This document shows, in pieces, positions 7,562 through 42,003 of a stretch of DNA of 64,000 bases. Location: positions 113,460,001 through 113,524,000 of the forward strand of contig OX597819.1 of the NCBI GenBank assembly GCA_951406725.2. The letters are read 5' to 3'. The stretch comes from Octopus vulgaris. Taxonomy: Eukaryota. Numbering within the stretch: the first letter of the stretch is position 1; each line of letters starts with the position of its first letter. The position numbers and the translations under genes were made by a program. Below the pieces are notes generated by a model, which made no database searches, was not told the origin of the DNA, and saw nothing but the letters and a program-made list of their open reading frames with translations.

Positions 7562-8879
7562 ATATATATATATATATCAGTATGTTCATATGCAAATGTG
7601 AATGCAAATGTGGTTTCTTTAATATTGATTTTTGTTTCCTTTAAGAAGATAAAAGGTTTGTGTATTACATACAAATAGTAGTATGCTTGTGTTTGTGTGT
7701 GTGCCTAACTGCATGTTGTTATATGTGTATATATGTACATTTATGAGTGTGGATATGTATGTATGTATGTATGTATGTATAAATACATGTCTGTGTATAA
7801 GCAAAAGAGTTAGGAAAAGGAGAAGAAGAAGAAGAATGACAGAAATAAGACAGAGACTGCCAATTTGCAATCTGCAGACATCTGATGTGCAATGGTTCCA
7901 TCACAAGGTTTGGTCGAGATGAGATGGGATGGGACACGTGGGTGGGGTATGTTGAGGTGTGTGCATGCGTGGATAAGCCTTGCTGTCAAAGTTGTCAACA
8001 TCTTAGAATCAGATCAGTTCAGATGAAGAGTCTGCATGCTGCTCTAACAGTGCAGCCATGATGCAGATTCTAAGTGAGCGTGTGCACATGTGTGTGAGTG
8101 TGCACATGTGTGTGTGTGAGTGTGCACATGTGTGTGTGTGCACATGTGTGCGTGCACATGTGTGTATGTGCACATGTGTGTATGTGTACATGTGTGTGTG
8201 TGCACATGTGTGTGTGTGCACATGTGTGTGTGCATGTAGGACCATGCATATATGTGAATGATGGAATGTATGTATATATGTGTGTGTGTGAGTGTTTGTG
8301 TGTGTGTGAGTGTTTGTGTGTGTGTGTGTGTGCATCAACATGTTTACATATACACCACGCACACACACTACACACCCATGTACATACAACCTGCTGTAAC
8401 CTGTAAAATGGCATGTGTGTATCTGAGTGCAAAATACATTTGTATACATGCCACGTTCACACACAAGCACACATACATGCACACACACACATACCTCATA
8501 CACATGCATATGCACACATACCTCGCACACACACAAACCATATACCTCGTACATATGTACTATACTTGCATGACTGCACATACAGCCACACCCTCCACAC
8601 TCTCTCAACAGCAACTGCATCTTCATCATCATCATCATCACTACCGTCTCTACCATTGCCACCATTACCATCATCACCATCATCACCACATCATCTTCAC
8701 CATCATTATCGCCTGTATCAAGCTTTACATTATTGTTAACAACACTAATAACATGAACAACATTACTAAATGCTTGGACAGCAGCAAAATCAAGAACTAC
8801 TATTTCTACTACTACCATCACACTACTACTGCTACTACTACAATTAATATCAATGTCTACTTCTAGTATTTCAACTCCT

Positions 8880-22981: not shown

Positions 22982-23236
22982 ATACACATATATATAGAGA
23001 GAGGCGGGGGGCAACTAGGTGGTTTTGGAGAAAGGGGGAGGACCAGTGGTTTGCTGTTACTGGGATGCTAGTTGGAACTTGATCAACCCCAGCTGGGTCA
23101 ACTGGGTGAAGGAGTCTGATGGTGAAAGACCTGAATCCCACCTAAAACTCCAGAAGCATCACAGCCGATGCATCTGACAGCATCCATGAGATGTATCTTG
23201 AAACTATATATATATACACACACACACACACATACA

Positions 23237-23274
<38 letters not shown>

Positions 23275-23277
<3 letters not shown>

Positions 23278-26200
23278 TCATCATCATCATCGTTTAACGT
23301 CCGTTTTCCGCGCTAGCACGGGTTGGACGGTTCGACCGGGGTCTGGGGAGCCAGAGGCTGCCCCAGGCTCCAGTCTGATCTGGCAGTGTTTCTACAGCTG
23401 GATGCCCTTCCTAACGCCAACCACTCCGTGAGTGTAGTGGGTGCTTTTTACGTGCTACCTGCACAGGTGCCAGAGGGGTCTGGCATCGGCCACGTTCGGA
23501 TGGTGCTTTTTATGTGTCACCGAAACAGAAGCCATTCGGGGCAGGGTTGGCATCGGTCACGTTCGGATGGTGCTTTTTATGTGCCACCGGCACAGAAGCC
23601 AGTGGAGGCTGCACTGGCAACAGCCACGTTCGGATGGTGCTTTTTATGTGTCACCGGCACAGGTATCACAACTACTGTTTCCATTGATATTTGGTTTGAT
23701 GTTCATGTACATGCACTTGACTCAACAGGTCTCCTCAAGCACAGCAAGATGTTCCGAGATCCCATGATCGGTTGGTGCTTTTTATGTGCCACCGGCACAG
23801 AAGCCAGTCGAGGGGGTGCTGGCGTCAGCCACGCTCGGATGGTGCTTTTTATGTGCCACCGGCACAGAAGCCAGTCGGGGCGGTGCTGGCATCGGCCACG
23901 TTCGGATGGTGCTTTTTATGTGCCACCGGCACAGAAGCCATTCAAGGCGGGGTTGGCATCGGTCCACGTTCGGATGGTGCTTTTTGTATGCCACCGGCAC
24001 AGAAGCCAGTCGAGGCTGCACTGGCAACGGCCACATTCGGATGGTGCTTTTTATGTGTCACCGGCACAGGTATCACAGCTACTGTTTCCATTGATATTTG
24101 GTTCGATATTCATGTATATGCACTTGACTCAACGGGTCTCCTCAAGCACAGCGAGAAGTTCCGGGATCCAAGGTAATTTGGATGGGCAGGGGGTATGCGG
24201 AACTGGTGCCGGAAGCATCCAGGGTCTTAGTAGTCACAGCACATCTCCAGAGATTTGGGTCCTTCGCCATTGCCTCAGTGAGGCCCAACGCTCTGAGGTC
24301 ATGCTTGACTACCTCATCCCATGTCTTCCTGGGTCTACCTCTCCCCCTGATTCCTTCAACTGTTCGGGAGTGGCACTTCTTCACACATCTCTCCTCATCC
24401 ATCCACAGTACATGACCATACCATCGCAAGCGTTGCTCTTGCACACCGCATCTGATGCTTCTTATGCCTAGCATTTCTCTCAGGGTGCTTACACTCTGTC
24501 GTGCATTCACACTGACATTACACATCCAGCGGATCATGCTAGCTTCATTTCTTTCAATCTTATGCATGTCCTCTGCAGTTACAGCTCATGTTTCACTGCC
24601 GTGAAGCATGGCAGTTAACACACATGCATCATACAATCTACCTTTCACTCTGAGTGAGAGGCCCTTTGTCGCCAGTAGGGGTAGGAGCTTTCTAAACTTT
24701 GCCCAGGCTATTCGTATTCTAGTGGTGACATTCTCTGAGCATCCACCCCCACTACTAACTTGGTCACCCAGGTAGCGGAAACTATCAACTACTTCTAGTT
24801 TCTCCCCCTGGAGTGTGATGGAATCTGTTTTTTGAGTGTCTGTGGTGTCTATTGTCCCTGTGCATCTGCCGCACATGAAAGCTATCTTATCAGTTAATTT
24901 CCCTTTGATGTTGCTGCACCTCTTATGCGTCCATAGCTTACACTGGGTGCATCTTATGGAGTTTCTACCTACACCTTTCCTACAGCTCGAGCAGGGCCAC
25001 CTGCCCGATGGGGTGTGTGCTGAGTTCGCCTTTCTGCATACTATAACTTTGGTCTTCGCTACATTTACTCTAAGGCCCTTAGATTCTAACCCTTGTTTCC
25101 ACACCTGAAATTTCTTTTTTAGTTCTGGTAGTGATTCTGCTATGAGGGCCAGGTCATCAGCATAGAGGAGCTCCCAGGGGCAACCTGTTTTGAATTCCTC
25201 TGCTATTGCCTGGAGGACTATGATGAATAAAAGGGGACTGAGGGCTGAGCCCTGGTGTACACCTACTTCTACCCGGAATTCTTCACTATATTCGTTGCCA
25301 ATCCTAACCTTGCTGACAGCCTCTCTGTATAGAGCCTGTACAGCCCTTATTAACCATTCGTCAATCAACAGTTTCCGCATCGACCACCAGATAAGGGATC
25401 GGGGAACCCTGTCAAAGGCTTTCTCCAAGTCCACAAAAGCTATGTAGAGGGGTTTATCTTTAGCTAGGTACTTCTCCTGCAGTTGTCGGACCAGGAATAT
25501 AGCATCAGTGGTGCTTCTACCTGGCACAAAACCGAACTGCATCTCATCTAAGCAAATTCTCTCCCTAATGAGATGGGTTATGACCTTCTCTGAGACCTTC
25601 ATCACCTGTCCAACAGTTTGATACCTCTGTAGTTATTTCTATCTAGAGCATCACCCTTACCCTTGTAGCAGTTGACTATGGTGCTGCTACGCCAGTCATT
25701 GGGTATGACTCCATTATGAACTACCTGGTTAACAATACGGGTGACTAGGCCATAGCCCGCATAACCAGCTGTTTTAAGCATCTCAGCAGTGATTCCTGAT
25801 GGGCCGGGGGCTTTACCCAGTTTCATATCCTTAATTGCTTTATCTACTAGGGAGCCGTCTATTCAGATAGCTGGTCCCTCTACTGGGTCAACATTTGGCA
25901 GGCTCTCCTCCTCTCATTCATTCTCCACATTCAGCAGTCTTTCATAATGGCTTCTCCAAGCCTCTTTCTTTTCACCAACATTAAAGGCAAGTGCCCCATC
26001 ATCCATGCGGACACATTTCTCTCCTATAACATCACTATTTTCTCTCACACACTGTCTAGCAATACGAAATACCTCAGTTCTTTGGTCCTCACGTCGCTGG
26101 ACATTGGCAAACTTCTTTTCTGCTATATCTTTGGCTATGTATACCTGCCGCCCGGCCTCCCTTTTGGCTACTTGGTACGGTTCCCTGCTACCCCCATCCC

Positions 26201-26666
26201 TCCAGGCTCTCCAGGCCTGTTTCTTAGAACTAATGGCTTTGTCTACTGCACTATTCCACCACCACGTAACTCTAGGTCTGGAAGGAACTTTGCACCATCC
26301 ACAGACTTGGTCTGTGGCACTCAGCAAGCTGTCCCGTAGGAATTTCCAGCTACCTTCTATGTCTGACGTCTGTAGCTCCTCCTCCCTCTCATCAAATTTC
26401 TTGATGAGGATATCCCTAAATCTCTGACCATGTGAAGGGTTCTTTAGCTTCCAAATCCTTCTTTTCTGGATTGGTCTGTTTCTTGGAGTCCTTCTGGCCT
26501 CAAGCCTAAAGTCACTAATTATTAGCCTATGCTGAGGGATACACTCTTCACCTGGGAGGGTCTTTGTATTTAAGAGCGACCCTGCATCCCGCTGTCTGGT
26601 GAGGATGAAGTCTATTTGGCTAGCGGAGTCCCCTGACTGATAAGTTATAAGGTGGCAGTCAGGCTT
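23275..26666 (-). mobile_element. 5'-truncated RTE-type non-LTR retrotransposon (LINE): partial AP endonuclease, RT, PHD-like finger, repeat-containing 3' UTR and (GAT)n tail
   Basis: ORF pieces 25914-26327, 25602-25826, 24586-25605 and 24142-24567 carry KAPGPSG, NYRGIKLL, FVDLEKAFDRV, GVHQGSALSPLLF, YADDL, FRYLG, LRWYGHV and GRGRPRKTW. QIDFIL..QHRL near 26520-26620 is the end of the endonuclease. Several frameshifts and stops. Confidence 0.93.
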
Positions 26667-26894
26667 ATATATGTATGTGTGTGTGTTTGTGTGTCTGTGT
26701 TTGTCCCCCTAGCATTGCTTGACAACCGATGCTGGTGTGTTTACGTCCCCGTCACTTAGCGGTTCGTCAAAAAGAGACCGATAGAATAAGTACTGGGCTT
26801 ACAAAGAATAAGTCCTGGGGTCGATTTGCTCGACTAAAGGCGGTGCTCCAGCATGGCCGCAGTGAAATGACTGAAACAAGTAAAAGTAAAAGTA

Positions 26895-27530
26895 AAAAAA
26901 GTATATCTGCTTTGTTTTATTCGGCAGCAATGCAAAGACCCATGGAAAACTGCTGCCTTTAACTTGTACACAAATGCTAAACAGCTGAAACCACTGAATG
27001 AATGTTCCATCACATTTTTTTTAACGTTCCATCACATGCCCAATGATGATATGATGCTATACCCTGAAGAGCACTTTCTGATGCAAATACTAGTATACGC
27101 TGTTGATCCTCGATACCCAAATTGTATCTCAGAAACTGTTCGCCATTATCAAGTTTACAATATTCTTCAGGTATTTCAAAACCAGTCCTAGCCCCTGATT
27201 AGTGGGAAATCCTGAATTTTTTTTGTTAGCACCTTTGAATAATCCTGGAAAGCAGAGGCAAGCAAGGAAGTTGCAAGTAAGTATTTTCTGTTAGCCGCGT
27301 AAAATTAGCTGCTATTATGCTATGCGAAATTGCTGCAATGTTTTCCACAGCTTCATACTTTATTTCTGCAACTGCTTTTCTAGCATTTAACGAATCTACA
27401 TCAGCTGGATGGAGGTGCTCACTAGAAAAATAAATAATTTTTGGCTCATTGTTTTCCATTACGGTGTGAATATGCACTGAACATAGCTTTCTTTTCTCAC
27501 ATCTCCAGTATCCTTTTCCTAGTTTTGTTA
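26895..27530 (-). mobile_element. Mutator-like (MULE) transposase relic with FLYWCH domain; upstream part probably resumes near 28960-29040
   Basis: Minus strand gives GKGYWRCEKRKLCSVHIHT...SEHLH (FLYWCH-like). After frameshifts it gives EQFLRYNLGIEDQQRILVFASESALQ..HWACDGT..QLFSI..FPWVFALLPNKT, typical of MULE DDE domains. Confidence 0.75.
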
Positions 27531-28960
27531 TTTCATTTCATTTGAGTTTGAGTCCATGCTCAGGCCAAGTCGAAGACTCCACCCTCAGAGTCTGGTGTGG
27601 TTGCCAGGTTGTATTCTCTGTTTAATTTTGACATGTGTAGGAGCGAGTTTGAGTCAGTTTGTGCTCGTTGTGTATATCCTGGGAGATGGGGTTCATCTCT
27701 AATGGTGCTTAAGTATCTATCCAGCTGCAATTTGAATGATTCCACACTGCATCCTGATAGATTTCTGACATGTACCGGAATGGAGTTGAATAGTTGTGCT
27801 CCTCGAACCAACAGACTTGACTCTCGCAGGGTTTTTGCTGCCTGGCCAGCCTTTTTGTTGATTGGTGGTAGCTGGCAGCGTCTTCCGTGGTGCAATGAGT
27901 GGTAGGTTTTGATACCAAAGTTTGGCACCTTTTGCTCTATCATTTTCCAAATGTGTATAATTCGGTATTGCTCAAATCTTCTTTCTATTGAGTACATCTT
28001 CAAGGTTTTGAGTCTTAGCCAATAGTCCAGGTCCCTCGTTTCTGAGAAGTATGAGGTAAAATTTCTTTGGAGCGATTCCATCTTAGATAGTTGGCCCTTT
28101 GTTGTTGGTGACCACAACTGAGAACAGTAGTCAATCCTCGGAAGTATCATACTGTTCCAGAGGGTTTTCATTGTCGAAGTATCTCTTGATTTGAAGGTGC
28201 GCAAGATCCACCCGCTGTACTTTCTTGCAGTAAGACAGACTGAGTCAAGGTGTTCTCTGAATTTTAGGCTGGGTCCCATGTGGATGCCTAAATCTTTCAC
28301 ATACTGTTTTTCCATTATTTGTTGTCCTGATGGGTTTCTGTAGTTTGTTGTATTTTTCAGATCTTGATCTGTTCCGTAGCGAATTAGTTCAAACTTCTTA
28401 TCATTGAACAACATGTTGTTTGTTTCCTGCCATTTATATATGGTGGTCAGGTCCTTTTGTAAGGCCTCTGTATCCACCCTCGTCTTTGATTTGTCTCATG
28501 ACCCTGGTGTCATCAGCAAAGGATGAGACGTTGCTGGTTGTATCTTCATCTATGTCAGAGATGAGGATGAGAAACAGGATTGGGCAGAGTACTGTGCCCT
28601 GAGGAACACTGCTGGTCACAGGTGATGGTGTTGAATGGGTTCCATTTACAGTGACTGTTTGAGTACTATTTGTAAGGAACTCATGTATCCATGTACCAAC
28701 TTTTCTTCCTACTCCTAGCTTTCGAAGTTTGTGACCCAGGATGCCATGATCTACCTTGTCAAATGCCTTGGCAAAGTCAAGGTAAATAACATCTGTGTTG
28801 TATCCATTCTCTAGATTTTCTAGGATTTGGTCATGGTGTGCCAGTAGTTGGGAAAGACATGATCTACCTAACCTGAATCCATGCTGGTTGCAATTCATCA
28901 GATTGTTAGATTCCAGGAACTCAACCAGTTTTCCACGAACTATTCTTTCGAAGACCTTGA
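27530..28960 (-). mobile_element. 5'-truncated CR1/L2-group LINE (RT and C-terminal domain) with a short pentamer/hexamer tail
   Basis: ORFs 28434-28898 (QHGFRLGRSCLSQL, YLDFAKAFDKVDH, VPQGTVLCPILF, FADDT) and 27560-28477 (KDLGI, RIDYCSQLWSP, LFNSIP); one frameshift. Tail (aaactc)(aaatg)n on minus. Confidence 0.88.
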
Positions 28961-29883
28961 TATGAATTCAACCTTATGCTTGAATGAAAATCATTGATGT
29001 AATTACTTACATCAACTGCTTTGTTATTTCGGGATGGGTAAATTAAAAATGTGTGCTCTAAATTTGCAGCACTCTCTACACACAGAACCGTACTTAAGAG
29101 AGAGAAGGAAAAAGAGGAAGTAAAACTGTTAACACAGAAGGAAAAAGAACGATAATAACAATCCTATAATGAGGCTTCTTAGATTTCGGAGAATATATCA
29201 TTAGAGATATTTCACCTTGTTTTCTAAAGAGTTTATTTAAAATTGACAAAAAGTTGGACAAAGAAAACATTTGACAAAAAGACAGACAAAGTGACATTAG
29301 ATGAAGTGACGCCAGACGAAAAAACATAGCACCGTCATGCACATATGGTTGTGATGCTTGTGTCTGATGTGCCCTTATCAGACAGGTAGTTATGATGGGT
29401 ATATTGGGCTTCGTATACTTGTACCCCAGTGTCACTTTGGTGGTATGCACTGCTCCTTCACTCCCTAATAACAATCTTTTATTTATTAGCTTCAAGGTCT
29501 CAGAGAGATACAAAACACATAAAACTTTCACTAGGAATTACAAAGAAAGAAAAAAAGTAGAGAGTGAAAGAGAAGTCAAATACGAAAAGAGGGGATGGAT
29601 GATATTATACTAAATATGGAAGAATGTATAAAGAGCTTAAAAGCATCTTCATACATACATACATGAACACACATACTTATGCATATATATGTATAAGTAT
29701 GTGTATTAGCATGGAAAAATAAGGCAAAATACAATAATTAAAAACTATGTAAAAAATCGACTTTTTGTTGTCTTTGTCTATCTCAGGGTTTCCTTACATG
29801 GCTGTAGGTCATTTTTACAAATTCTCTACTGAAAAATCTCATTTTGTAAAAGCGGATGAAATACCACTAAGCATTTTGCTCAG

Positions 29884-31792
29884 CATCATCATCATCATCA
29901 TCGTTTAGCGTCCGTTTTCCATGCTGCCACGAGCTGGATGGTTTGACTGGGGACTGGCAAGCCAGGAGACTGCACCAGGCTCCAATCTTATCTAGCAATG
30001 TTTCTACACCTGGATGCCCTTCCTCATGCCAACCACTCTGAGAGTATAGTGGCTGCTTTTTACATGCCACCAGCACGAGAGCCAGTCAGGCGGCACTGGC
30101 ATCAGCCACGTTAGGATGGTGCTTTTTATGTGCCATCAGCACAGGAGCCAGTCGGGGTGAAGGCACTGGCATTAACCACATTCAGATGGTGCTTTTTAGG
30201 TGCTATCAGCATGGGAGCCAGTCAGGCGGCACTGGCAATGACACACGCATGAATGGTGCTAATTGCGAGCCACCAGCATGGGAGCCAGCCAGGCGGCACT
30301 GGCATCAGCCACAACTACAATTTGCATTTGATTAGATTTTGATTTGCTTGACTCAATAGGTCTCCTCAAGCATGGCATGTCGCCCAACGATCCAAAGGTA
30401 CATTTTTAAGTAGGTTGGTTATGCGACACTGGTGTAGGCTACAGCTGTGATATCACTTTTCTTGCCAGGTCTTCTCATTCACAGTATATCTGTCTCGGTC
30501 TTTCGTCATTGCATCACCACCTCATCCCATGTCTTCATGGGTCTCCCTCTACAACTGGCTCCTTGTACTGTTTGGGAGTGACACTTCTTCACACAGCTCT
30601 CCTCATCCATATGTAACACATGACCATACCAGTGCAGTCATCTCTCTTGCATGCCACATCTGATGCTTCTTATGTCCAACATTTCTCTCAGGGCGCTTAC
30701 AATCTGTCGTGTGTGCACACTGACATTACACATCCACTGGATCATGCTAGTTTCATTTCTTTCACGACTACGCATGTCCTTAGCAGTTGTGGCCCATGTT
30801 TCACTGCCGTAAAGCATGGCAGTTTGCACACATGCATGCATTGTATAATCTACCTTTCACTCTGAGCGAGAGGCCCTTTGTCACCAGTAGAGGTAGGAGC
30901 TCTCTGAACTTTGCCCAGGCTAATTTTATTCTAGTGGTGACGCAATCTGAGCATCTATCCTCCACTACAGACTTGGTCACCTAGGTAGCGGAAGCTATTG
31001 ACTACTTCTAGTTTCTCCCACTAGCATGTGATGGAATTTATTGCCCCTGTGCATCTGCCACACATGAAAGCTATCTTCCCAGTTAACCTTCCTTTGATGT
31101 TGCTGCACCTCTTATGTATCCATAGCTTATACTAGGTACATCTTATGGAGTTTCTACCTACACCTTTTCTACAGATCAAGTAGAGCCATCTATGTGAATG
31201 GGTTTGTGATGTGTTCGTCTTCCTACTTACTAGGACTTTGGTTTTTGCAACATTGACTTCAAGGCCCTTCAATTCTAAACCTTGCTTCCACACCTGAAAT
31301 TTCTTCTCTAGTTCTGGTAGTGATTCTGCTATGAGAGTAAGGTCATCAACATAGTGGAGCTCCCAGGGGCAACCTGTCTTGAATTCCTCTGTTATTGCCT
31401 GGAGGACTATGATGAATAAGAGGGGGCTGAGAGCTGACCTTGGTGGACCCCTAGTTCTACCCAGAATTCTTCAATATACTCACTGCCACCCCTAACTTTA
31501 CTAACGACGTCTCTGTACAGCTCTTATTAACCACTCGTCAATCCCTAGTTTCTGCATCGCCCACCAGATAAGGGATTGGGGGACCCTGTCAAAGGCTTTC
31601 TCCAAATCCACAAAAGTCAAGTATAGGGGGTATATCCTTGGCTAGGTATTTCTCCTGCAGTTGCTGTACCAGGAATATAGCATCAGCGGTGCTTCTACCT
31701 GGCACAAAACTGAACTGCATCTCATCTAAGCAGACTCTCTCCCTAATTAGTGGGGCTATGACCCTCTCCATGACCTTCATCACCTGATCCAG
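29884..31792 (-). mobile_element. Second, more degraded RTE LINE copy (RT C-terminal half plus 3' UTR)
   Basis: Colinear with 23275-25620: LDQVMKVMERV..DEMQFSFVPGRST, MLYGSETW, same 3' UTR repeats and CAT tail. Confidence 0.88.
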
Positions 31793-33249
31793 CATGCTAA
31801 TGATTCTACCGGCTCACCACCTTAAGGCCAACAGTTTTGACAGGGGGAGGTAAATTGATGCCAACTATTCCAATACTTGAATGGTACTTTATGTTCTCTA
31901 CCCCTGGATAGGGTTAGATAAAATGAAGATAAATTAAATGAGTACCAAAAGTGCTGGATAAAATAAGTTTTCTCAATTTGGAGTCATATGGAAATAAACA
32001 ACAATAATAAAATAGGAAAATATATGTAAAATTCAACACATCCATTAACAACAATTTCCAAAACATAAAATTACTAGGTTTAATACATTTACTAACAGGA
32101 TATATTCCATAAATTGAACGTATCAAACATATTAATACACATACACGTGCACACACACACACACAATATATAATACACTGTGTGTACCAAAGACATGTAA
32201 ATAAATGTTGAAATGTGAGACAATGAGAACAATGTTAATCACAAAACTAAAAGTGTTTATTTCTTAAATAAGCAGAAAAGTTGCTAATGCTGTATGCAAA
32301 ATAAAAGATTGAAGAGTTGGTGGGTTTCAAAATAATTTTTTGCTCAGCAAAGAATATCAAACATTTTCATTGAAAGAGAATTTTAATTGCTATTTTTGAA
32401 ATTGTATTAGAATTGCTAAAAGCACAGGGGATTAATTTTAAATCCTTTCTCTGACAAATGAATTGCACAAAAGAAGTAAATACTTTATTAGCAGCATATA
32501 ACATGCATAGGTAACATGTCCGTGTAGATATTAATGATGATCTTCATGGGTTGGCCAGTCTAAAAATTCTGTGATTTAAAAAAGTTGATACAAAGACAGG
32601 AATAATATAATTCTGTGTGGAAGACTTGACCAACAAACTCAAGGACGAAAAGTTTACGTAAGAGTGATGATGATGATGACAGTGGCAATAATGATGATGA
32701 CTGTGATTATAGCAACAATTTTTTTTTTCCCAGTATTTTTTTAATGCAGATTTAATATGTAATTCAGAAACTGTAGAATCCAAATAGTTTGGAGTTTAAA
32801 AGAGAACTCAGATACACAGTTATGGGTCAATAGAAAGTATAAAACAACAGAAACTAGAATAAATATGTAACAGAGAAACTGTTGGTGTTCAAATAGACCT
32901 TTCCGATACTAACCTACCTTTGACCGGCACTGGATCAAGGATATAAACGGCATATTTTAAAAGGCTCATCATTATCATCATCATCATCATCATCATTTAA
33001 CATCCGCTTTCCATGCTGGCATGGGTTGAAATCAAAATTTTTCAATTTTATGAAAGAAAATATAATTCTCCAAACATCATAAAAATAATGAGAAATTTGG
33101 TTATTTTATAAAAATACCTGAAACTGAGTTATTTTCAATATTGTACAAAAAACAACAACAGTATTCTTCTTTGGAAATAGTCAGTAAAGAAAATGTTTCT
33201 TCGACTTGAAAGAATTCCTCTGTATTGAAAGTGTAGTGTAAACCAAATC

Positions 33250-34173
33250 CTAAAATTTCTCCTCAATTTCAAAAATAATTTTATCCCTAGTAAAAATATT
33301 TACAAAACTTTTCCGGAATATTTTATTGCAGAATCCATACACCATGGGATTTAAGGAGGAATTTAGTATCCAAGTACGGTATAAAACCACTTTAAAGATC
33401 TGCAACAAATTAGAATCTTTGCAGTATGGATATATGACAAAGAAGATGAGGAATGGCGAAAAACTGACAGTATACAAAACAGAGATTGAGAAAAGTACAA
33501 TGATGGTGTGATTGATTCGTTGTTGTCTGGGAGCTTCTTCTTTACTTTGCTTTTTCCTGAGACGCTGAGTAATAGTTTTCCAAACAAAGGAATAAAGTAC
33601 AGTCAAGGCTAGGAGAAGTATAGCGTGAAGAATTAAGGCTACTAGAGTATATGACCAGACAGATGACCTTCTAAGGTCACTACCACATATCATGTACATC
33701 TTGTTTTCATAGGTAAAGGGAACACCTTCAGTATAGATAATAATTGGTAATATTAGTATGACCGATGTTATTGCTATGGAAACAATAAGTCTCTGGCGTA
33801 GGTTTTGGGTAATTTGTTTTCCATGTGGACGACATATTTTTCTGAACCTTTCGACGGCAACTGTGAGAAGAATGAGGGATGACATGATAGAACAGGTGAA
33901 GACAATAAACTTGTATAATTTACACAAATAATTTGATTGAATTGCAGGATAAAGTTCAGCCATTTCCAGAGGCATTCCAAAGATACATCCAATGAGATCA
34001 ATGACAGCCAGTACAAGGATGAATGCTTCTACATTGCTTTTCTGGGACTGTCGTGCATAAATATAGATCACAAATATGTTACCAACTAGTCCCACAATTA
34101 GGAAGAAAGGTATCATACTAAAAACAATTAATCTTGAAATCAAAACAGGATCAGACAAATGGGTTGCATTCAT
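33250..34173 (-). CDS. Intronless rhodopsin-like (class A) GPCR, orphan/peptide-receptor-like, 307 aa
   Basis: Uninterrupted ORF with seven hydrophobic segments, TM1 GLVGN, TM2 LAVID, TM3 Cys and AVERF (DRY variant), TM6 SFSPF, TM7 NSSLNPMVY, and helix-8 FRK. Confidence 0.9.
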   Translation of the reverse strand: MNATHLSDPVLISRLIVFSMIPFFLIVGLVGNIFVIYIYARQSQKSNVEAFILVLAVIDLIGCIFGMPLEMAELYPAIQSNYLCKLYKFIVFTCSIMSSLILLTVAVERFRKICRPHGKQITQNLRQRLIVSIAITSVILILPIIIYTEGVPFTYENKMYMICGSDLRRSSVWSYTLVALILHAILLLALTVLYSFVWKTITQRLRKKQSKEEAPRQQRINHTIIVLFSISVLYTVSFSPFLIFFVIYPYCKDSNLLQIFKVVLYRTWILNSSLNPMVYGFCNKIFRKSFVNIFTRDKIIFEIEEKF

Positions 34174-36509
34174 GTTGAAACAAGAGGGTAGTTTATAGTT
34201 TAGTATGTTTAACGTGTATATGTTGATTGTTGAAATGTATATATGTGTATGCTTGTATTAGTACATATATATATATATATTTATATTGTATGGTAATTAA
34301 CTTGATTAGTCCATTACCGGTAGACTGAAAATCATTTGTAATCCAAACTTCTATGTTGGAGATGATATTGGAATTCTGTTCTTGTAGTTGAGTCCTTATA
34401 CAAATGCAATTACAATGTGGAATAAACTTATCCGACAGAGATTTCAAAGGAATTTGCAATAATTTGTCTGATAAGTTGCTTAAATATATATTATACAGAC
34501 TAAAATACATCCTGCTTAATTTTACTAATTAGTTTCAAAGTAGATCACCTCATCACAAATATGTACTAAGTTATGAAACCTAAATAACAACAATGATTTT
34601 AATACTATCACTTTACTAAATTGCACTATTTAGTGATGACGACCAGAAACAAAATATCAGTGGAAAAAAATTCATTCAGATATTTCTTCCAAGTTCAAAC
34701 CTTGCTGAGGCCAAATTTGCCTTTCAAATCTCTATGGTTGAAACAAAGTACCAATCAAGAACTGGTACCAATGGTATTTACTAACACCCTCATCTTCAAA
34801 CTGTTGGCCTTCTGTCTAAATCAAAGACCCATTTAAAGGCAGTAAGCTGGTACAATCTTTAGAACATAGGAGAAAACTTTTGTGGTATTTGTGTCAGCAC
34901 TTTATGGTCTGGGTCCCTAACCAGAAAATTTCAAGTTGGCGTTTTATTCTTTCAGGGGTGGATTAAAGTACCAGTGAAGTCCTGGGACTACTGGTACTGA
35001 CTAATTCCCTCATAGCATGAACACAGCATTTCATCTTTCTATGTTTATTAATGATATAAGAATCCATCAGGTAGATGAGGCCAACAGGATCACAATTATA
35101 TGCTCCACATACAATATAAATTCCCTTGTGCTGATGTCAGAATTTATAATTATTATTATTATTGAGTGAAAGAACAGTGCATGCCATCAAAGTGACACTG
35201 TTGTAAAATATACGAAGCCCAGTATACCCACCATGACTACCCAACTCATAAGAGTACACCAGGCACATGCATCACAACCGTATGTGCATGACATGGTAAT
35301 CTAATATCAAGATAAACAGCACATGACCTAGCAGGTGAGCCCAGTTAGAATTTTCATCAGGTCAAGTAGGCCATCCAGCTCAAAAGGTCCCTGAATGAGG
35401 GTTGTTTAAGGATGTTGAATGAAACATTGTTTCCAGAGGTGAATTATTCAAACCCCAAAGAATTCCTCTCAACATGTGGCTAGGATGCTCCCCCACTACC
35501 TCTGCTTGTGATCAGAGATGCACATATCGTCAGCCACTAAGAGACATGCTCAACTGGTTATGATCAAACAGCTGAGAAGCAAATCTGTGGTATTGAGCAG
35601 AATATTTGCTGTAGTCCATCTTATATACCAAAACAAAACAATGTACATGATAACACTTCCAATCAGTTAAGATCAGAAGCCATGAGAGCCACTGCCTGGT
35701 ACTGCATCAGGGCAGCTACGGCCGCCGCCACCATCATCGCTGTCATCGTTATTATTATATAGGGTGGCAAGCTAGCAGAAATGTTAGCACACTGGGCAAA
35801 ATGCATGATAGTACTTTGTCCCTCTTTACGTTCTGAGTTGAAATTCCACTGAGGTTAACTTTGCCTTTCAGCCTTTTGGGGGTTGACAAAATAAGTAGCA
35901 GTTGAACACTGGAGGTGATGTAATCAACACATCCCCTCCCCCAAATTGCTACCCTTGTGACAAAATTTGAAACCATTATTATTATTATCATTATTATTAT
36001 TATTATCATTATTATTATTATTATATAGGGTGGTGAGCTAGCAGAAATATTAGCAAGGCGGGCAAAATCATCATCATCATCGTTTAACGTCCGTTTTCCA
36101 TGCTAGCATGGGTTGGACGGTTCGACTGGGGTCTGGGAAGCCAGGAAACTGCACCAGGCTCCAGTCTGATCTGGCAGGGTTTCTACAGCTGGATGCCCTT
36201 CCTAATGCCAACCACTCTGTGAGTGTAGTGGGTGCTTTTTATGTCCCACCGGCACAGGTGCCAGTGGAGGCTGGCAACGGCCATGATCAGTTGGTGCTTT
36301 TTACGTGCCACCGACACGGAAGCCAGTCAAGGAGGCGCTGGCATTGGCCACATTCGGATGGTGCTTTTTACGTGCCACCGGCACAGGTATCACAACTACA
36401 ATTTCCGTCCCACTTTTATATCCTGCCACAGGTTGGTATAGATAAATTTTACAGCGGAGGTTTAATCAATGTGTTTACACAACGTACTTCGTGAGACTTC
36501 TAAGATGCT

Positions 36510-38562
36510 CTCTGAATTTTTATTAGGCACAATGGCCTGAACACAGAGGGAATGGTACAAGAGCCGACAGAACAATACAAGTGGGGTCAAAAATATGAAA
36601 TGAATGAATGAAAATAGATTTATATAATGAAGGGAGGTGTAATAGCTACTCTAACCTCACTCTTGAGTAGTACCATTTCATTATATTTTTTCCTCATTTT
36701 TTTTATACCAACATTCATCAATTTAATTTATCTTAATATATGTAATATTGTTTCGATTGTTCAAATTCCATCACAGGTGGTAGATAACCATATTTTACCT
36801 CGCTCCCTAGTGGGTTCACATCAACGCCAAAGCTTGCCTTCAATTTTTTTATAATTATTTAAGTCTATTATTATACACTCCATGCCTGGTATGCGTAAAT
36901 CACCCTCCTCTATAATTTTTATTACCGTCTTCATTTTTGCAATTTTTTCCTCAAATTGCTGTGTTCGACCACTAGTGCATCAGATACTCCCTATGTTTAT
37001 AACTGGCCTGTAATTCTTGTGTGTCTGCTTGTGTGTATTCAACTGGAGACTCTGGGCTGTCTGCGCGTGCTTGTGTATACTTGACTGGAGATTCTGGGCT
37101 GTCCGCGCGTGCTTGTGCATACTTAACAGGATACTCTGGGCTATCTGGGACACTTCTGCATCTCTGCTGCAATGGAATGCGCTGTGTGGGCGCTTGCATG
37201 CCACTTACTTCCTTCTTTTTCTTCGTTTTTGAGTTCTTCGGAGGTGGTGGAGAGTTTCCAAAATCCCTCCTCCCTTGCACCTCCCGGAATCCCTCATCTC
37301 TGCCCTCCACATTTGCCCCCCCTGCACCTTCCTTCAGTTCCTCATTTCTGCCACCCTCCTCCTGCATCTCCTCTCCCGGCGTCCAGCCGTTAAGAAGGGG
37401 ACAATTCACCCCTATGCGCCCCCTCCCTCCACAGTGGCAGCAGATGGGAGGTCTTCCATCCACCACCACTCGCAACTTCACCTCATCTGGCAGCTCCATC
37501 TCCTTGGCAATCTCTTGCAAGCCCAGTGGGGCGGCCCGCATTACAACTTCCAGGCCATATCCCTATCTGTTCACCTGCTTGGTGCAGCTGACCTGCAGCA
37601 CCTCCGGGTCCTCCCTTGTTTCCATTAAGACAGCTGCAAGGAGCCACATCTCACTAATCCCGTGGCACACCCTGCCAATCCACACTCCCGTCACTCGCTC
37701 ACTGAGGCAGGTTGGCAGGAGTGCCCCTTCTTCTGTTTTCAATGTTACAGTGGTGTAATTTACTGCCTCCTCCACAGCAGGGAAGTGCACCTCCACTGTA
37801 CCAAACTTTCTTCCTCTGCAGTAAAATTCAGTTTCACTTCTTATATCTTCCAAGCATTCTTCTATAGCTTCCATTGAAACGTTGAAAACAGAAGAATGGG
37901 CACTCCCGCCAACCTGCCTCAGTAAACATGTGGCGAGAGTGAGGCTTGGCAGGGCGTGCCACAAGATCAATGAGATGCGGCTGCCTGCAGCCATCTTAAT
38001 AGAAACAAAGGAGGACCCAGAAGTGCTGCAAGTCAGCCACACCAAACAAACGAACTGACAGGGACACGGCCTGGAAGCTACAATGCAGGCCACCCCACTG
38101 GGCCTACAAGAAATTACCAAAGAGATAGAGCTACCAGATGAGGTGAAGTTGCCAGTGGTGGTGGATGGAAGACCTCCCATTTGCTACCACTGTGGAAAGA
38201 AAGGGCACGTAAGGGTGAATTGTCCCCTTCTTAACAGCCAGACACCAGGAGAGGAGATACAGGAAGAAAACAACAGAAATGAGGAATTAAAGGAAAACAC
38301 AGAAGAAGCAAATGCAGAAAGCAGAGATGAAGGATTCCGGGAAGTGCAAAAGAGGAAGGATTCCAAAAACTCTCCACCACCTCCGAAAAACTCAAAAAAG
38401 AAGGAAGCAAGTAATATACAAACACCCACACAGCACATTCCATCACAGCAAAAACACAAAAACATCCCAGACAACCCAGAATATCCAGTTAAGTATACAC
38501 AAGCACACACAGACAGACCAGCATCTCCAGTTAAATACACACAAGAATATACACAAGCATTA
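36510..38562 (-). mobile_element. Non-autonomous non-LTR retroelement (gag-like ORF1 with CCHC knuckle) carrying a long fold-back duplication
   Basis: ORFs 36972-37541(-) and 38083-38583(+) are homologous (VVVDGRPPICYHCGKKGHVRVNCP). Arms 37011-37746 and 37878-38562; loop 37747-37877. An A-rich continuation and AATAAA lie on the minus strand toward 36515. Confidence 0.78.
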
Positions 38563-38728
38563 AGAAGATGTCATAATATTTAATTACTATTATCATTACT
38601 ATTATTATTATTATTATTATTAATAATAATATTATTATTATAATCAATTATTAATACCATATTAATATGCATGTACATTTTAATCAGCATATTTATCATT
38701 ATACATTATCATGTTATAATAATAATAA

Positions 38729-38814
<86 letters not shown>

Positions 38815-38817
<3 letters not shown>

Positions 38818-39373
38818 GCCCTGATGCAGTACCAGGCAGTGGCTCTCGTGGCTTCTGATCTTAACTGATTGGAAGTGTTATCATGTACATTGTTTTGTCT
38901 TGGTATAAAAGATGGGCTACAGCAAATATTCCTGCTCAATACCACAGATTTGCTTGTCAGTTGTTTGACCATAACCAGTTGAGCATGTCCCTTAGTGGTT
39001 GATGATATGTGCATCTCTGATCATGAGCAGAAGTAGTGGGGGAGCATCATAGCCATGTGTTGAGAGGAGTTCTTTGGGGTTTGAATAATTCACCTCTGGA
39101 AACATGGGTGTTTCATTCAACATCCTTAAACAACTCTTATTCAGGGACCTTTTGAGCGGAATCGGTTACTTGACCAGAAGAAAATTCTAACTGGGCCCCC
39201 ACCTGCAAGGTCATGTGCTGTTTATCTTGATATGAGATCACCATGTCGCGCACATATGGTTGTGATGCATGTGCCTAGTGTACCCTTATCAGACGGGTAG
39301 TCATGATGGGTATACTGGGCTTCGTATATTTTACCCCAGTGTCACTTTGATGGCATGCACTGCACTCTCACTC

Positions 39374-39400
<27 letters not shown>
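38815..39400 (+). mobile_element. ~560 bp interspersed retroelement with (AAT)n tail; inverted copy at about 35150-35712, fragment at about 29335-29470
   Basis: The sequence gccctgatgcagtaccaggcagtggctctc...gtcactttgatggcatgcactg..ctcactc(aat)n recurs in opposite orientation at 35161-35712. Confidence 0.75.
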
Positions 39401-39419
<19 letters not shown>

Positions 39420-39517
39420 GTAGTAGTAGTAGTAGTAGTAGTAATAATAATAATAATAATGATAATAATAATGATAATAATTATAATAATAATTATAATA
39501 ATGATGATAATTATAAA

Positions 39518-39579
<62 letters not shown>

Positions 39580-40216
39580 TAATAATGATCCGTTCTGCTA
39601 AAGGCACAAGGCCTGAAGTTTTGTGGGAAAGAAAGCAGTCAGTTACATTGAAGCCAGTGTACAACTGGTACCTATTTTATCAACCCTGAAAGGATAAAAG
39701 TCAAAATTAACCACAGCAGAACTTGAACTCAGAACGTAAAGATGGACAAAATGCCACTCTGCATTTTGCCTAGCCTGCCAACAATTCTGCCAGGTTGCTG
39801 TCTTAATAATGATTATAATTATAATAATAATAATAATAATAATAATGATCTCAAATTTTGGCACAAGGCCAGCAGTTTTGTGGGAGAGGGTAAGTCAATT
39901 ATATCAACCCAATGCTTGATTGGTACTTATTTTATCGACCCAATCTGTTTAAGTATGTGGAGACACATCCGTTCAGATAGGGCCCTTAGCACTCCATTCG
40001 ATCGTATATTTAAGGAATAGTTTTTTTCACTAATATCCTCACTTGTTCAATTGCCATTCACATAACAACGCATCTTGAATTAACAGTTAAGTTCCTAAGT
40101 TTTAATTTTATTTAAATGTGACTCAGTCGATGTCTTTATAAACTTCCCCTTTCTCAATAAATATCCCATTTGCCAAAGCCACATGTCACTCTCCCCCTCT
40201 AATTTTATAATGTTTA

Positions 40217-40703
40217 CCGTAAATCCTCGAGTATAGTCCGCCCTTGAGTATAATACGCAGGGGATTTTTAGGGGGCTGTACCTCTGAAAACTTAAACCTT
40301 GTGCATAATACGCACCCCTTCTCTAACTTGAGTCAAGGAGGTCTATATAATGTCCTTGATTTGTAAAAATGTATATGGTAACATCCTTTATCGTTATTGT
40401 ATATATAACATAATGCAAATGTGTAGCATTTTTGTGCATTTTGTTTGCAGAAAATAAAGAAATAACAGTAATAACGTTTAATAAATCTTGCTTACTGCAA
40501 GTTATGGACGATTCTTTTATGACTTCATTGCTTTCAGGCTTAGCTTAAGGTATTTTCGCATCCAACATCACAAAATGAGTCTCACAGCAAATAGAGACTC
40601 GGACATTGCTTAGAAAATATTTTTCATTTTTAACCTTGTATATAGTACGCACTCAGGATTTTGACCTTTAAATTTTGGGGGAAAAAATGCGGATTATTTA
40701 TGG
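40217..40703. mobile_element. Putative TcMar/pogo-like non-autonomous element
   Basis: ta-ccgtaaat start with repeated gagtata.tccgc/tacgcac subterminal motifs; the other end gcggattatttatgg-ta. Confidence 0.55.
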
Positions 40704-41454
40704 TATGCAATAAATATGCTGATTAGAATGTATATGTGTATTAACATGGTATTAATAATCAGGAGACTAATATTCATTCGCACAGATCATGAACACAATG
40801 TCCATGTTTGTACACCCATTATGCCCACCTGCCCTCCCCTACCACTGCCATTTTAATTTAAATGTAAATGAACAGTTTCAACTGGCAATTCATACACCCC
40901 TCCTGTGATGAGGGTAAGGGTACATATTTTGCTTACTTCCCTCTTTCTACTATATGCCTGCATGCAGGCATCCATATGAGTGCCATACACACCTAAGGTT
41001 ACCGCATATATGAATATTTAGACATATTAGTACCTAAACAGTCCTGTGTAGTCTCCCTATCCTCTCTTCCTGGTCAGCCTACATGCACTCTTCTTATATC
41101 CTCCTCATCACTTCCTTGCTGGCTCTTGCTCTGGATATTGTATGGGAATGAGAAAGTTTGTAAAACACTGTAATTCATCGAATAAATTATGTACTAAAGT
41201 CTTTGTGCAGAACCTCTTCTTTCCAGATGATAACAAAAGTGTCACACTTACTCTTTTACTTGTTTCAGTCATTTGACTGCGGCCATGCTGGAGCACCGCC
41301 TTTAATCGAGCAACTCGACCCCGGGACTTATTCTTTTTGTAAGCCCAGTACTTATTCTATCGGTCTCTTTTTGCCGAACTGCTAAGTAACGGGGACATAA
41401 ACACACCAGCATCGGTTGTCAAGCAATGCTAGGGGGACAAACACAGACACACAA

Positions 41455-41487
<33 letters not shown>

Positions 41488-41693
41488 CATATATACGACA
41501 GGCTTCTTTCAGTTTCCGTCTACCAAATCCACTCACAAGGCATTGGTCGGCCCAGGGCTATAGCAGAAGACACTTGCCCAAGATGCCACGCAGTGGGATT
41601 GAACCCAGAACCATGTGGTTGGTTAGCAAGCTACTTACCACACAGCCACTCCTGCGCCTATATATATCAACACACATTTATATACACATATCT

Positions 41694-41740
<47 letters not shown>

Positions 41741-41756
41741 CATACATTCATACATA

Positions 41757-42003
41757 CAGGGCTGGCCAAAAGTAACCTACCAGTAAATCAAAATTCCATA
41801 AATATTATCTGTTATTCTGTATTGACTTGAATGGAAAAATGTGTTTGGAAAAATGTGTTGTTCAAGAAGGATTTCGGTTTGAACAATTTTCATGATGTTT
41901 CATATTTAGTTGCTTTTATTAAAATCCTTCAGTTGTTAAACATAAATAAATCTTGGAATTAAATGGTTTTGATTTACTGTCAGGTGACTTTTGGCCAGCC
42001 CAG
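41757..42003. mobile_element. Tc1/mariner-type MITE
   Basis: TA-flanked TIRs cagggctggccaaaagtaacct..cagtaaatcaaaa / ttttgatttactg.caggtgacttttggccagcccag. Confidence 0.8.

Follow-up and report, generated by a model that had tools for sequence, protein, structure and literature searches.

Two inverted copies of an ORF1 element in the genome of Octopus vulgaris form a fold-back that carries a total of about one hundred A-to-G changes, all read on the minus strand. This is an ADAR-type event, it is present in germline DNA, and it is recurrent. It is very probable that ADAR edited a minus-strand RNA which was then reverse transcribed into germline DNA. The fold-back lies in the window, the whole 64,000-nt stretch analyzed here (contig OX597819.1, positions 113,460,001 to 113,524,000, forward strand), and positions given without a contig name count from its first letter. 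Octopuses belong to a group with heavy RNA editing, and adenosine-deaminase domains are found at four loci of this genome.

Results

Fold-back structure and differences between the arms

The inverted copies that the first-pass annotation had described at 37011-37746 and 37878-38562 were confirmed as an inverted repeat, with arms reaching approximately 37011 and 38562 and a core (37218-37753 and 37871-38406) that is 82% complementary. The left copy extends past the hairpin and ends at about 36410-36520. The hairpin stood as first described; its loop is the 5' continuation of the left copy (Table 1) and meets the right arm at a 3-nt microhomology, as read from the sequences. A GT-AG intron at this central junction was considered and rejected on sequence reading. 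The predicted fold of the minus strand is one long hairpin of -1247 kcal/mol, compared to -958 kcal/mol for the plus strand.

Alignment of the right arm with the reverse complement of the left arm over 677 columns gave 83 A/G and 26 C/T differences, as compared to 3 G/A and 5 T/C, with 12 transversions (binomial p = 2.7e-21 for A/G against G/A and 1.9e-4 for C/T against T/C). None of 175 other inverted pairs from 824 kb of the same genome, a control set that excludes the window pair itself, was comparably biased (smallest p 0.023). An earlier hand count over 266 nt (26 A/G, 14 C/T, 2 G/A, 0 T/C and 6 transversions) was matched exactly, as was the rarity of a 5' G at those sites (1 of the 26 A and, on the minus strand, none of the 14 T/C sites).

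Table 1. Features of the fold-back and of the segment that contains it (positions in the window).
Feature	Position	Strand	Description
Left arm	37011..37753	-	Sense strand of the ORF1 element; A>G hypermutated, sites 37064 to 37700
Loop	37754..37872	-	Extends the left copy on its 5' side; unpaired and essentially free of edits
Right arm	37870..38562	+	Shorter of the two copies, placed head-to-head to the left one; T>C on plus, equal to A>G on minus
3' part of left copy	36410..37010	-	Outside the hairpin, unedited
GPCR open frame	33253..34257	-	Rhodopsin family, Pfam 7tm_1 E = 4.9e-31; about 2.2 kb downstream of the element
14.6-kb copy of one GPCR-cluster unit	26666..41248	-	97-99% identical, collinear apart from separate insertions
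5'-truncated LINE	23277..26665	-	(CAT)n tail on plus; RVT_1 E = 8.1e-27; abuts the segment's 3' end
Full-length SINE	41248..41660	-	Abuts the segment's 5' end; absent here in the paralog; unedited, T>C 0/97
Candidate target-site duplication, left copy, 18 nt	23225..23242	+	Followed by (TA)n and the LINE tail
Candidate target-site duplication, right copy, 18 nt	41735..41752	+	75 nt past the SINE head

Direction of change in the two arms

The ancestral state was read from 27 other genomic copies (L004-L030) projected on the arms, one of which is itself hypermutated and makes the comparison conservative. At the 83 A/G sites the family holds A at 72, G at 4 and mixed states at 7, and at the 26 C/T sites it holds T at 16, C at 4 and mixed states at 6. 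Since the family is mostly A at the former and T at the latter, the change in the left arm was A to G on the minus strand, and that in the right arm was T to C on the plus strand, which is again A to G on the minus strand. The earlier claim of minus-strand A-to-G change in both arms is thereby borne out. The family state speaks against a G/C consensus, the reverse direction that the annotation had itself raised, and against G-to-A change on the sense strand as in APOBEC DNA editing. Its caveat about C/T sites was justified, as the four sites with a family C reflect ordinary C-to-T change in the left arm.

In a tree built with the A/G sites masked, both arms and the copy in the paralogous gene unit form one clade with 100% support. 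The arms are therefore sister copies and not members of two different ordinary subfamilies, as could have been supposed. The pairing of L010 with L041up in the same tree is an artefact, as both share sequence through projection.

The right-arm signal is weaker than that of the left arm but holds. T-to-C changes affect 17 of 77 positions; the paralog has 8 of 78, and the rates in 15 other copies lie at 0-16%. Among changes found only in the right arm, T was hit at 13 of 97 positions against 7 of 464 for the other bases (p = 1.6e-6). At six sites (38059, 38065, 38067, 38298, 38408 and 38463; five in TA context) the family's T is replaced by C in the right arm and the paralog alike, and these could stem from an earlier, lighter round of editing or from ectopic conversion.

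Changes are confined to the paired stem and follow ADAR neighbor preferences

The A-to-G changes are confined to the paired stem of the hairpin. Compared to the paralog's copy, the closest unedited one, 86 of 255 A in the main stem of the left arm are changed, as against 1 of 33 in the loop (p = 1.6e-4). The 3' part beyond the hairpin has none of its 217 A changed, and the initial 50 nt of the stem none of 15. Compared to the family, the left arm shows 66 A-to-G changes among 199 A, with 7 A-to-C and 4 A-to-T; the corresponding A-to-G counts are 0 of 27 in the loop and 6 of 119 in the 3' part. A-to-C and A-to-T are thus at background while A-to-G is clustered on one strand.

The left-arm changes depend on the 5' neighbor (T 16/31, A 28/68, C 17/56, G 6/59), and the depletion after G (6/59 against 61/155, p = 2.6e-5) agrees with what had been noted by eye. 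The right arm, read on the minus strand, gave U 12/33, A 4/15, C 6/30 and G 2/18. When three copies were pooled, the counts were T 101/136, A 169/293, C 79/220 and G 40/242 (0.74, 0.58, 0.36 and 0.17), so that the order of preference is U>A>C>G. The same 5' pattern is given for metazoan ADARs in the available text of PMC9989829. That text has a 3' U disfavored in most species, whereas in the pooled copies here a 3' A is lowest (95/299); the 3' neighbor matters less than the 5' one.

The changes are present in germline DNA

Assembled contigs from four of the 24 sequencing runs listed for the stretch were examined. These runs come from four studies with four species labels, and their kind is given as 'DNA?' or unknown. 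No RNA run was among those listed for the stretch, and the best-matching run was omitted as a possible source. The left arm was covered by contigs in all four runs with 0-11 other letters per 188-384 nt, and the junction at 37843-38022 was crossed by one contig in each run with 0-2 other letters. An unedited arm would be expected to differ at about 12% of positions. Contig coverage was piecewise, with none across the whole stretch, and one run had zero depth at 37302-37372. In the distal arm, 8 of 188 nt are different in one run, and two runs show an unedited A at position 37118. The presence of the edits in contigs of four runs from four studies places them in germline DNA, and the concern that the edited arm and central junction were an assembly artefact can be set aside.

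The ORF1 element

The element is an ORF1-only non-LTR element whose protein has two RRM folds and a CCHC knuckle. The first-pass annotation had called it a gag-like ORF1; ORF1 was right and gag apparently was not, the protein being ORF1p-like. The CCHC knuckle is present in the ORF. A first structure model was poor (pLDDT 49), and that of a relative with a long ORF reached pLDDT 91, with residues 50-218 forming two RRM-like folds. Its structural matches are tandem RRM proteins (best Z 9.5, rmsd 2.3, 78 aligned residues), with no capsid among the matches listed. Tandem RRMs followed by a zinc knuckle are the build of non-LTR ORF1 proteins. A search for homologous proteins gave no match among longer proteins, and the Atlas matches are unnamed eukaryotic clusters only.

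No long terminal direct repeats were found at the element ends in 11 family copies and five long-ORF loci, the exceptions to repeat-free ends being short or tandem-type repeats in L006, L050 and L136. A downstream reverse transcriptase frame of at least 220 aa is absent in all five long loci; in one copy, L256, RT-coding sequence directly adjoins the element. Poly(A) was not found at the 3' ends of 11 copies, and no target-site duplication of at least 10 nt was seen at the four edited copies tried, whose ends are only roughly placed. HAL1 (half-L1) is likewise an ORF1-only derivative of a LINE in the available text of PMC5753468, from which the present element differs in its tandem RRM folds and CCHC knuckle and in that neither a poly(A) tail nor a target-site duplication was found. 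It would appear from its sequence to work in a HAL1-like, ORF1-only manner; descent from L1 proper is not claimed, and it is not classed as HAL1 because poly(A) and target-site duplication were not found.

An approximately 95-nt module at 36420-36513 lies at the 3' end of some element copies and recurs with 87-90% identity at many other places; it may represent a common 3' end that a partner enzyme reads. Directly adjoining the ORF1 element at its 3' end, at 36067-36404, is a same-strand 3' fragment of the window's LINE family, and the paralog has this arrangement too. It may be that the fold-back itself came in as a LINE-tailed chimera, for which no target-site duplication was found. In another locus of the same superfamily (L138:5625-6299 and 7569-8242), a 676-nt inverted repeat of 98% identity surrounds an intact ORF1 and is unskewed. 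This repeat includes a hammerhead-like core, by pattern only, and an Rfam search returned no match at gathering level and no hammerhead family. Its layout recalls that of Penelope-like elements.

Other A-to-G hypermutated copies of the family

When 98 partly redundant family segments were scored, eight segments from five loci (on C2, C13, C4, C7 and C12) were A-to-G outliers (p < 2e-4). All eight are biased on the sense strand, and no T-to-C outlier was found among the 98. The two longest outliers have 178 of 384 and 147 of 346 A changed, with 67/184, 36/97 and 33/156 in the others. Edited intervals differ from copy to copy, and the two outliers included in the tree fall outside the window's clade. 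The fold-back has at least five independently hypermutated companions. No inverted partner was found within about 10 kb at any of the five loci, which fits copies of RNA that was edited elsewhere and then inserted.

With the unedited ORF1 protein as query, 1 of 135 scored copies was hypermutated, which marks the class as rare, although such a search is biased against edited copies and three of the five loci came from edited queries. At L254 (G000:C12:54048709-54050561), two partial copies stand in tandem and only the downstream one is hypermutated (33/156 against 6/343). Several unskewed copies show a mild G-to-A excess (smallest p 1e-5).

The fold-back lies in a dispersed copy of a GPCR-cluster unit

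The closest paralog of the window's GPCR (93% aa identity) is in a tandem cluster at C6:114.61-114.70 Mb, about 1.1 Mb away. As the paralogous unit belongs to this cluster, it is probably the parent of the 14.6-kb segment. The parent unit is without most of the left arm. Its remnant of that arm is unedited: 8 of 50 A are changed in the window, and none in the reverse direction. Outside the element transitions are symmetric, and in segment B the counts are C/T 29 (8 of them in the left arm), T/C 28, A/G 15 and G/A 18. A 5:0 skew at 26666-27531 was judged not to be editing, as the SINE part of the window matches its family there.

The edited RNA, the GPCR, the LINE and the SINE share the minus strand. 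The LINE is one that we take from its motifs to be RTE-like. The 18-mer flanking the composite occurs twice in the window and not at all in 951,722 nt of other loci, and none of 470 control flanks shared at least 16 nt. Under a less strict test, matches of 16-17 nt within 25 kb turned up for 4 of 29 other LINE tails, so the candidate duplication rests on its position and not on its length. A short high-copy element with terminal inverted repeats, MITE-like, lies at 41755-42003.

Between the window GPCR (33253-34170) and G000:C6:114625400-114626290, 297 codons were compared, of which 22 differ with and 7 without an amino-acid change. The cluster paralog stops early and the frame in the window stays open. 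A young LINE present in both units, with 97.6% identity, occupies a different position in each (window 27530-28974 and G000:C6:114616453-114617679).

In a second copy from the cluster, L272 (G000:C6:95354660-95360840), a LINE 3' tail is followed by 5.7 kb of same-strand cluster segment with a GPCR, and the insertion splits a SINE with an 11-nt duplication. It looks like a dispersed gene copy retro-duplicated from unspliced RNA. The orientation of the passenger equals that of the LINE in both composites. No editing was seen in L272 against the parent: a 25:1 A/G skew proved to be a (TTA)n/(TTG)n microsatellite difference, and a 700-nt gap considered as a GT-AG intron was rejected on sequence reading. 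A third dispersed GPCR is located at C2:178.78 Mb.

Discussion

Proposed origin of the edited segment

The minus-strand RNA would fold into a hairpin of roughly 690 bp, in which ADAR would convert about one third of the left-arm A and about one fifth of the right-arm A to inosine, to be read as G by a reverse transcriptase. The source was somewhat more probably than otherwise the unspliced transcript of one of the GPCR genes in the cluster at 1.1 Mb distance, written to a new site by a LINE reverse transcriptase. That enzyme would have begun at a (TA)n target with its own RNA as template, then moved over to the GPCR transcript and reverse transcribed some 12 kb of it, the edited hairpin included, before ending on a SINE RNA and leaving the 18-nt target-site duplication. 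The LINE and SINE at the segment ends, the 18-mer outside them and the similarly built L272 together suggest one retro-insertion of an edited, unspliced transcript. The first-pass annotation had envisaged the fold-back alone as the written unit, which probably does not hold, a much longer transcript being the likelier unit; its suggestion of a new insertion is favored over conversion in place without being proven. The explanation as a whole, route included, is held with the same modest preference as the source.

Several observations speak against this route. The paralog's right copy is about 190 nt longer at its 5' side than the window's and covers the loop. An RNA of the parent's form would therefore pair the loop, yet the loop is unedited, and the route then calls for either another source allele or a rearrangement that came later. 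No edits occur in the initial 50 nt of the stem, and the six family-T sites with C in both right arm and paralog go beyond one editing event. Neither intron loss nor poly(A) was found as a mark of RNA origin in the 14.6-kb segment, L272 shows no editing, and about 16 kb is a long stretch for a LINE enzyme to copy.

These points leave some room for conversion in place, a rather unlikely course in which the segment was duplicated as DNA, the window copy lost its center, its own hairpin transcript was edited, and homologous repair from the cDNA or RNA rewrote the locus in one or several rounds. The edits fit the window's present stem and loop, unlike the paralog's structure, and are younger than the split from the paralog; the six shared T-to-C changes could be an earlier round, and the 8 differences in 188 nt of one run's distal arm, together with the unedited A at 37118 in two runs, are in keeping with such a course. 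On the other hand, the LINE, SINE and 18-mer would then sit at the segment ends by chance, whereas L272 shows that LINE-tailed composites do form from the GPCR cluster. The long inverted repeat of L138 has no skew, which, as far as its sequence can tell, would count against conversion, and the five edited loci that have no nearby inverted partner fit insertion of edited RNA instead. Both retro-insertion and conversion in place require ADAR and reverse transcription.

A DNA-level mutator acting with no RNA step is improbable. Error-prone synthesis, by polymerase eta (WA>WG) or under nucleotide-pool imbalance, and deamination by ADAR of the DNA strand in an R-loop are possible mechanisms of this type; only one strand is hit, and 5' T and A are favored as they are for polymerase eta. 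The loop between the arms would share any synthesis tract or R-loop, yet it is spared, which largely refutes such an origin. Moreover, A-to-C and A-to-T are not raised (7 and 4 against 66 A-to-G changes, 2 and 4 against 178, 7 and 7 against 147), 5' C stands clearly above 5' G (p = 2.3e-6), and 33-46% of A are changed. Ordinary causes are less probable still, whether cytidine deamination or CpG decay in the reverse direction, two subfamilies, a transcription-coupled bias or an assembly artefact. They can account for some C-to-T change in the left arm, given the 4 of 26 sites with a family C, and a mild G-to-A excess does occur in several unskewed copies (p down to 1e-5). For most sites they are refuted by the family state (72 of 83), the single clade and the contigs from four studies; the symmetric flanks within the same gene unit and the absence of such a skew in all 175 control pairs speak against them as well.

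Significance

The fossil would show that retroelement RNA is a target of ADAR in the germline or in the early embryo, and would allow the enzyme's sequence preference to be dated. Retro-duplication of unspliced transcripts would be one way for GPCR genes to leave their cluster. The wider proposition, that in this lineage ADAR-edited RNA recurrently enters the germline and that a LINE enzyme copies multi-kilobase unspliced transcripts and so disperses genes such as GPCRs with their current RNA edits fixed in DNA, is evenly balanced. If it holds, past ADAR activity in the germline would be preserved in the genome as a datable record, and RNA editing would lead directly to heritable sequence change. 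The locus has its own internal controls in two arms, a loop and an unedited parent copy, as well as at least five independent companions, and the question thereby becomes one of genome-wide computation, an APOBEC-style scan for A-to-G hypermutated copies.

Comparison with known systems

In the literature searched, which left subscription journals and supplements largely outside, no report was found of ADAR-hypermutated retroelement copies fixed in a genome. Heritable marks of A-to-I editing in retroelements or host genes are assumed rather than shown in the available text of PMC4982230 and PMC9068888, and the former, a 2016 review, describes a role of ADAR in Alu evolution or in suppression by mutation as not determined. 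ADAR1 did not edit L1 RNA in one assay, as given in the accessible part of PMC5224506. ADAR editing of inverted repeats in transcripts is described for Alu and cephalopod repeats (PMC4982230, PMC9068888 and PMC9989829, as far as their available text goes). The substrate, an inverted repeat, and the neighbor preference are the same as in the fossil, and editing of this kind is known there at the RNA level.

LINE-1 chimeras carry non-LINE RNA 5' of the LINE in the same orientation and within one target-site duplication, and template switching is named for them in the portion available of bioRxiv 10.1101/2025.02.02.635956. The window composite likewise has a same-orientation passenger 5' of the LINE, with a target-site duplication that is a candidate only. 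The passengers given in that portion are small RNAs, Alu and mRNA fragments, whereas those of the two composites here are stretches of 6-12 kb from an unspliced gene region in which the GPCR frame is intact, and the LINE clade is different.

The avian retroviruses RAV-1 and ALV show A-to-G hyper-editing, as cited in the accessible text of PMC8586724, and share with the fossil ADAR-linked A-to-G clusters in a genome that passes through reverse transcription. They are exogenous and their editing is reported there as rare, whereas the fossil is fixed in the host germline with several independent loci, is common to four species labels and lies on both arms of one hairpin.

The fossil can be regarded as the RNA-editing counterpart of the APOBEC 'DNA-edited' LTR retrotransposons fixed in vertebrate genomes (Knisbacher and Levanon, PMC4866542; Zaranek et al., PMC2873906). 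According to the available text of these two papers, clustered, one-strand, context-biased deamination fixed in retroelement copies is common to both. In the APOBEC system G-to-A change is produced by a cytidine deaminase on the cDNA of LTR elements, and 19 invertebrate genomes served as a negative control. The fossil described here differs in that A-to-G change by an RNA deaminase would have affected a non-LTR element of an invertebrate, within bounds set by RNA structure.
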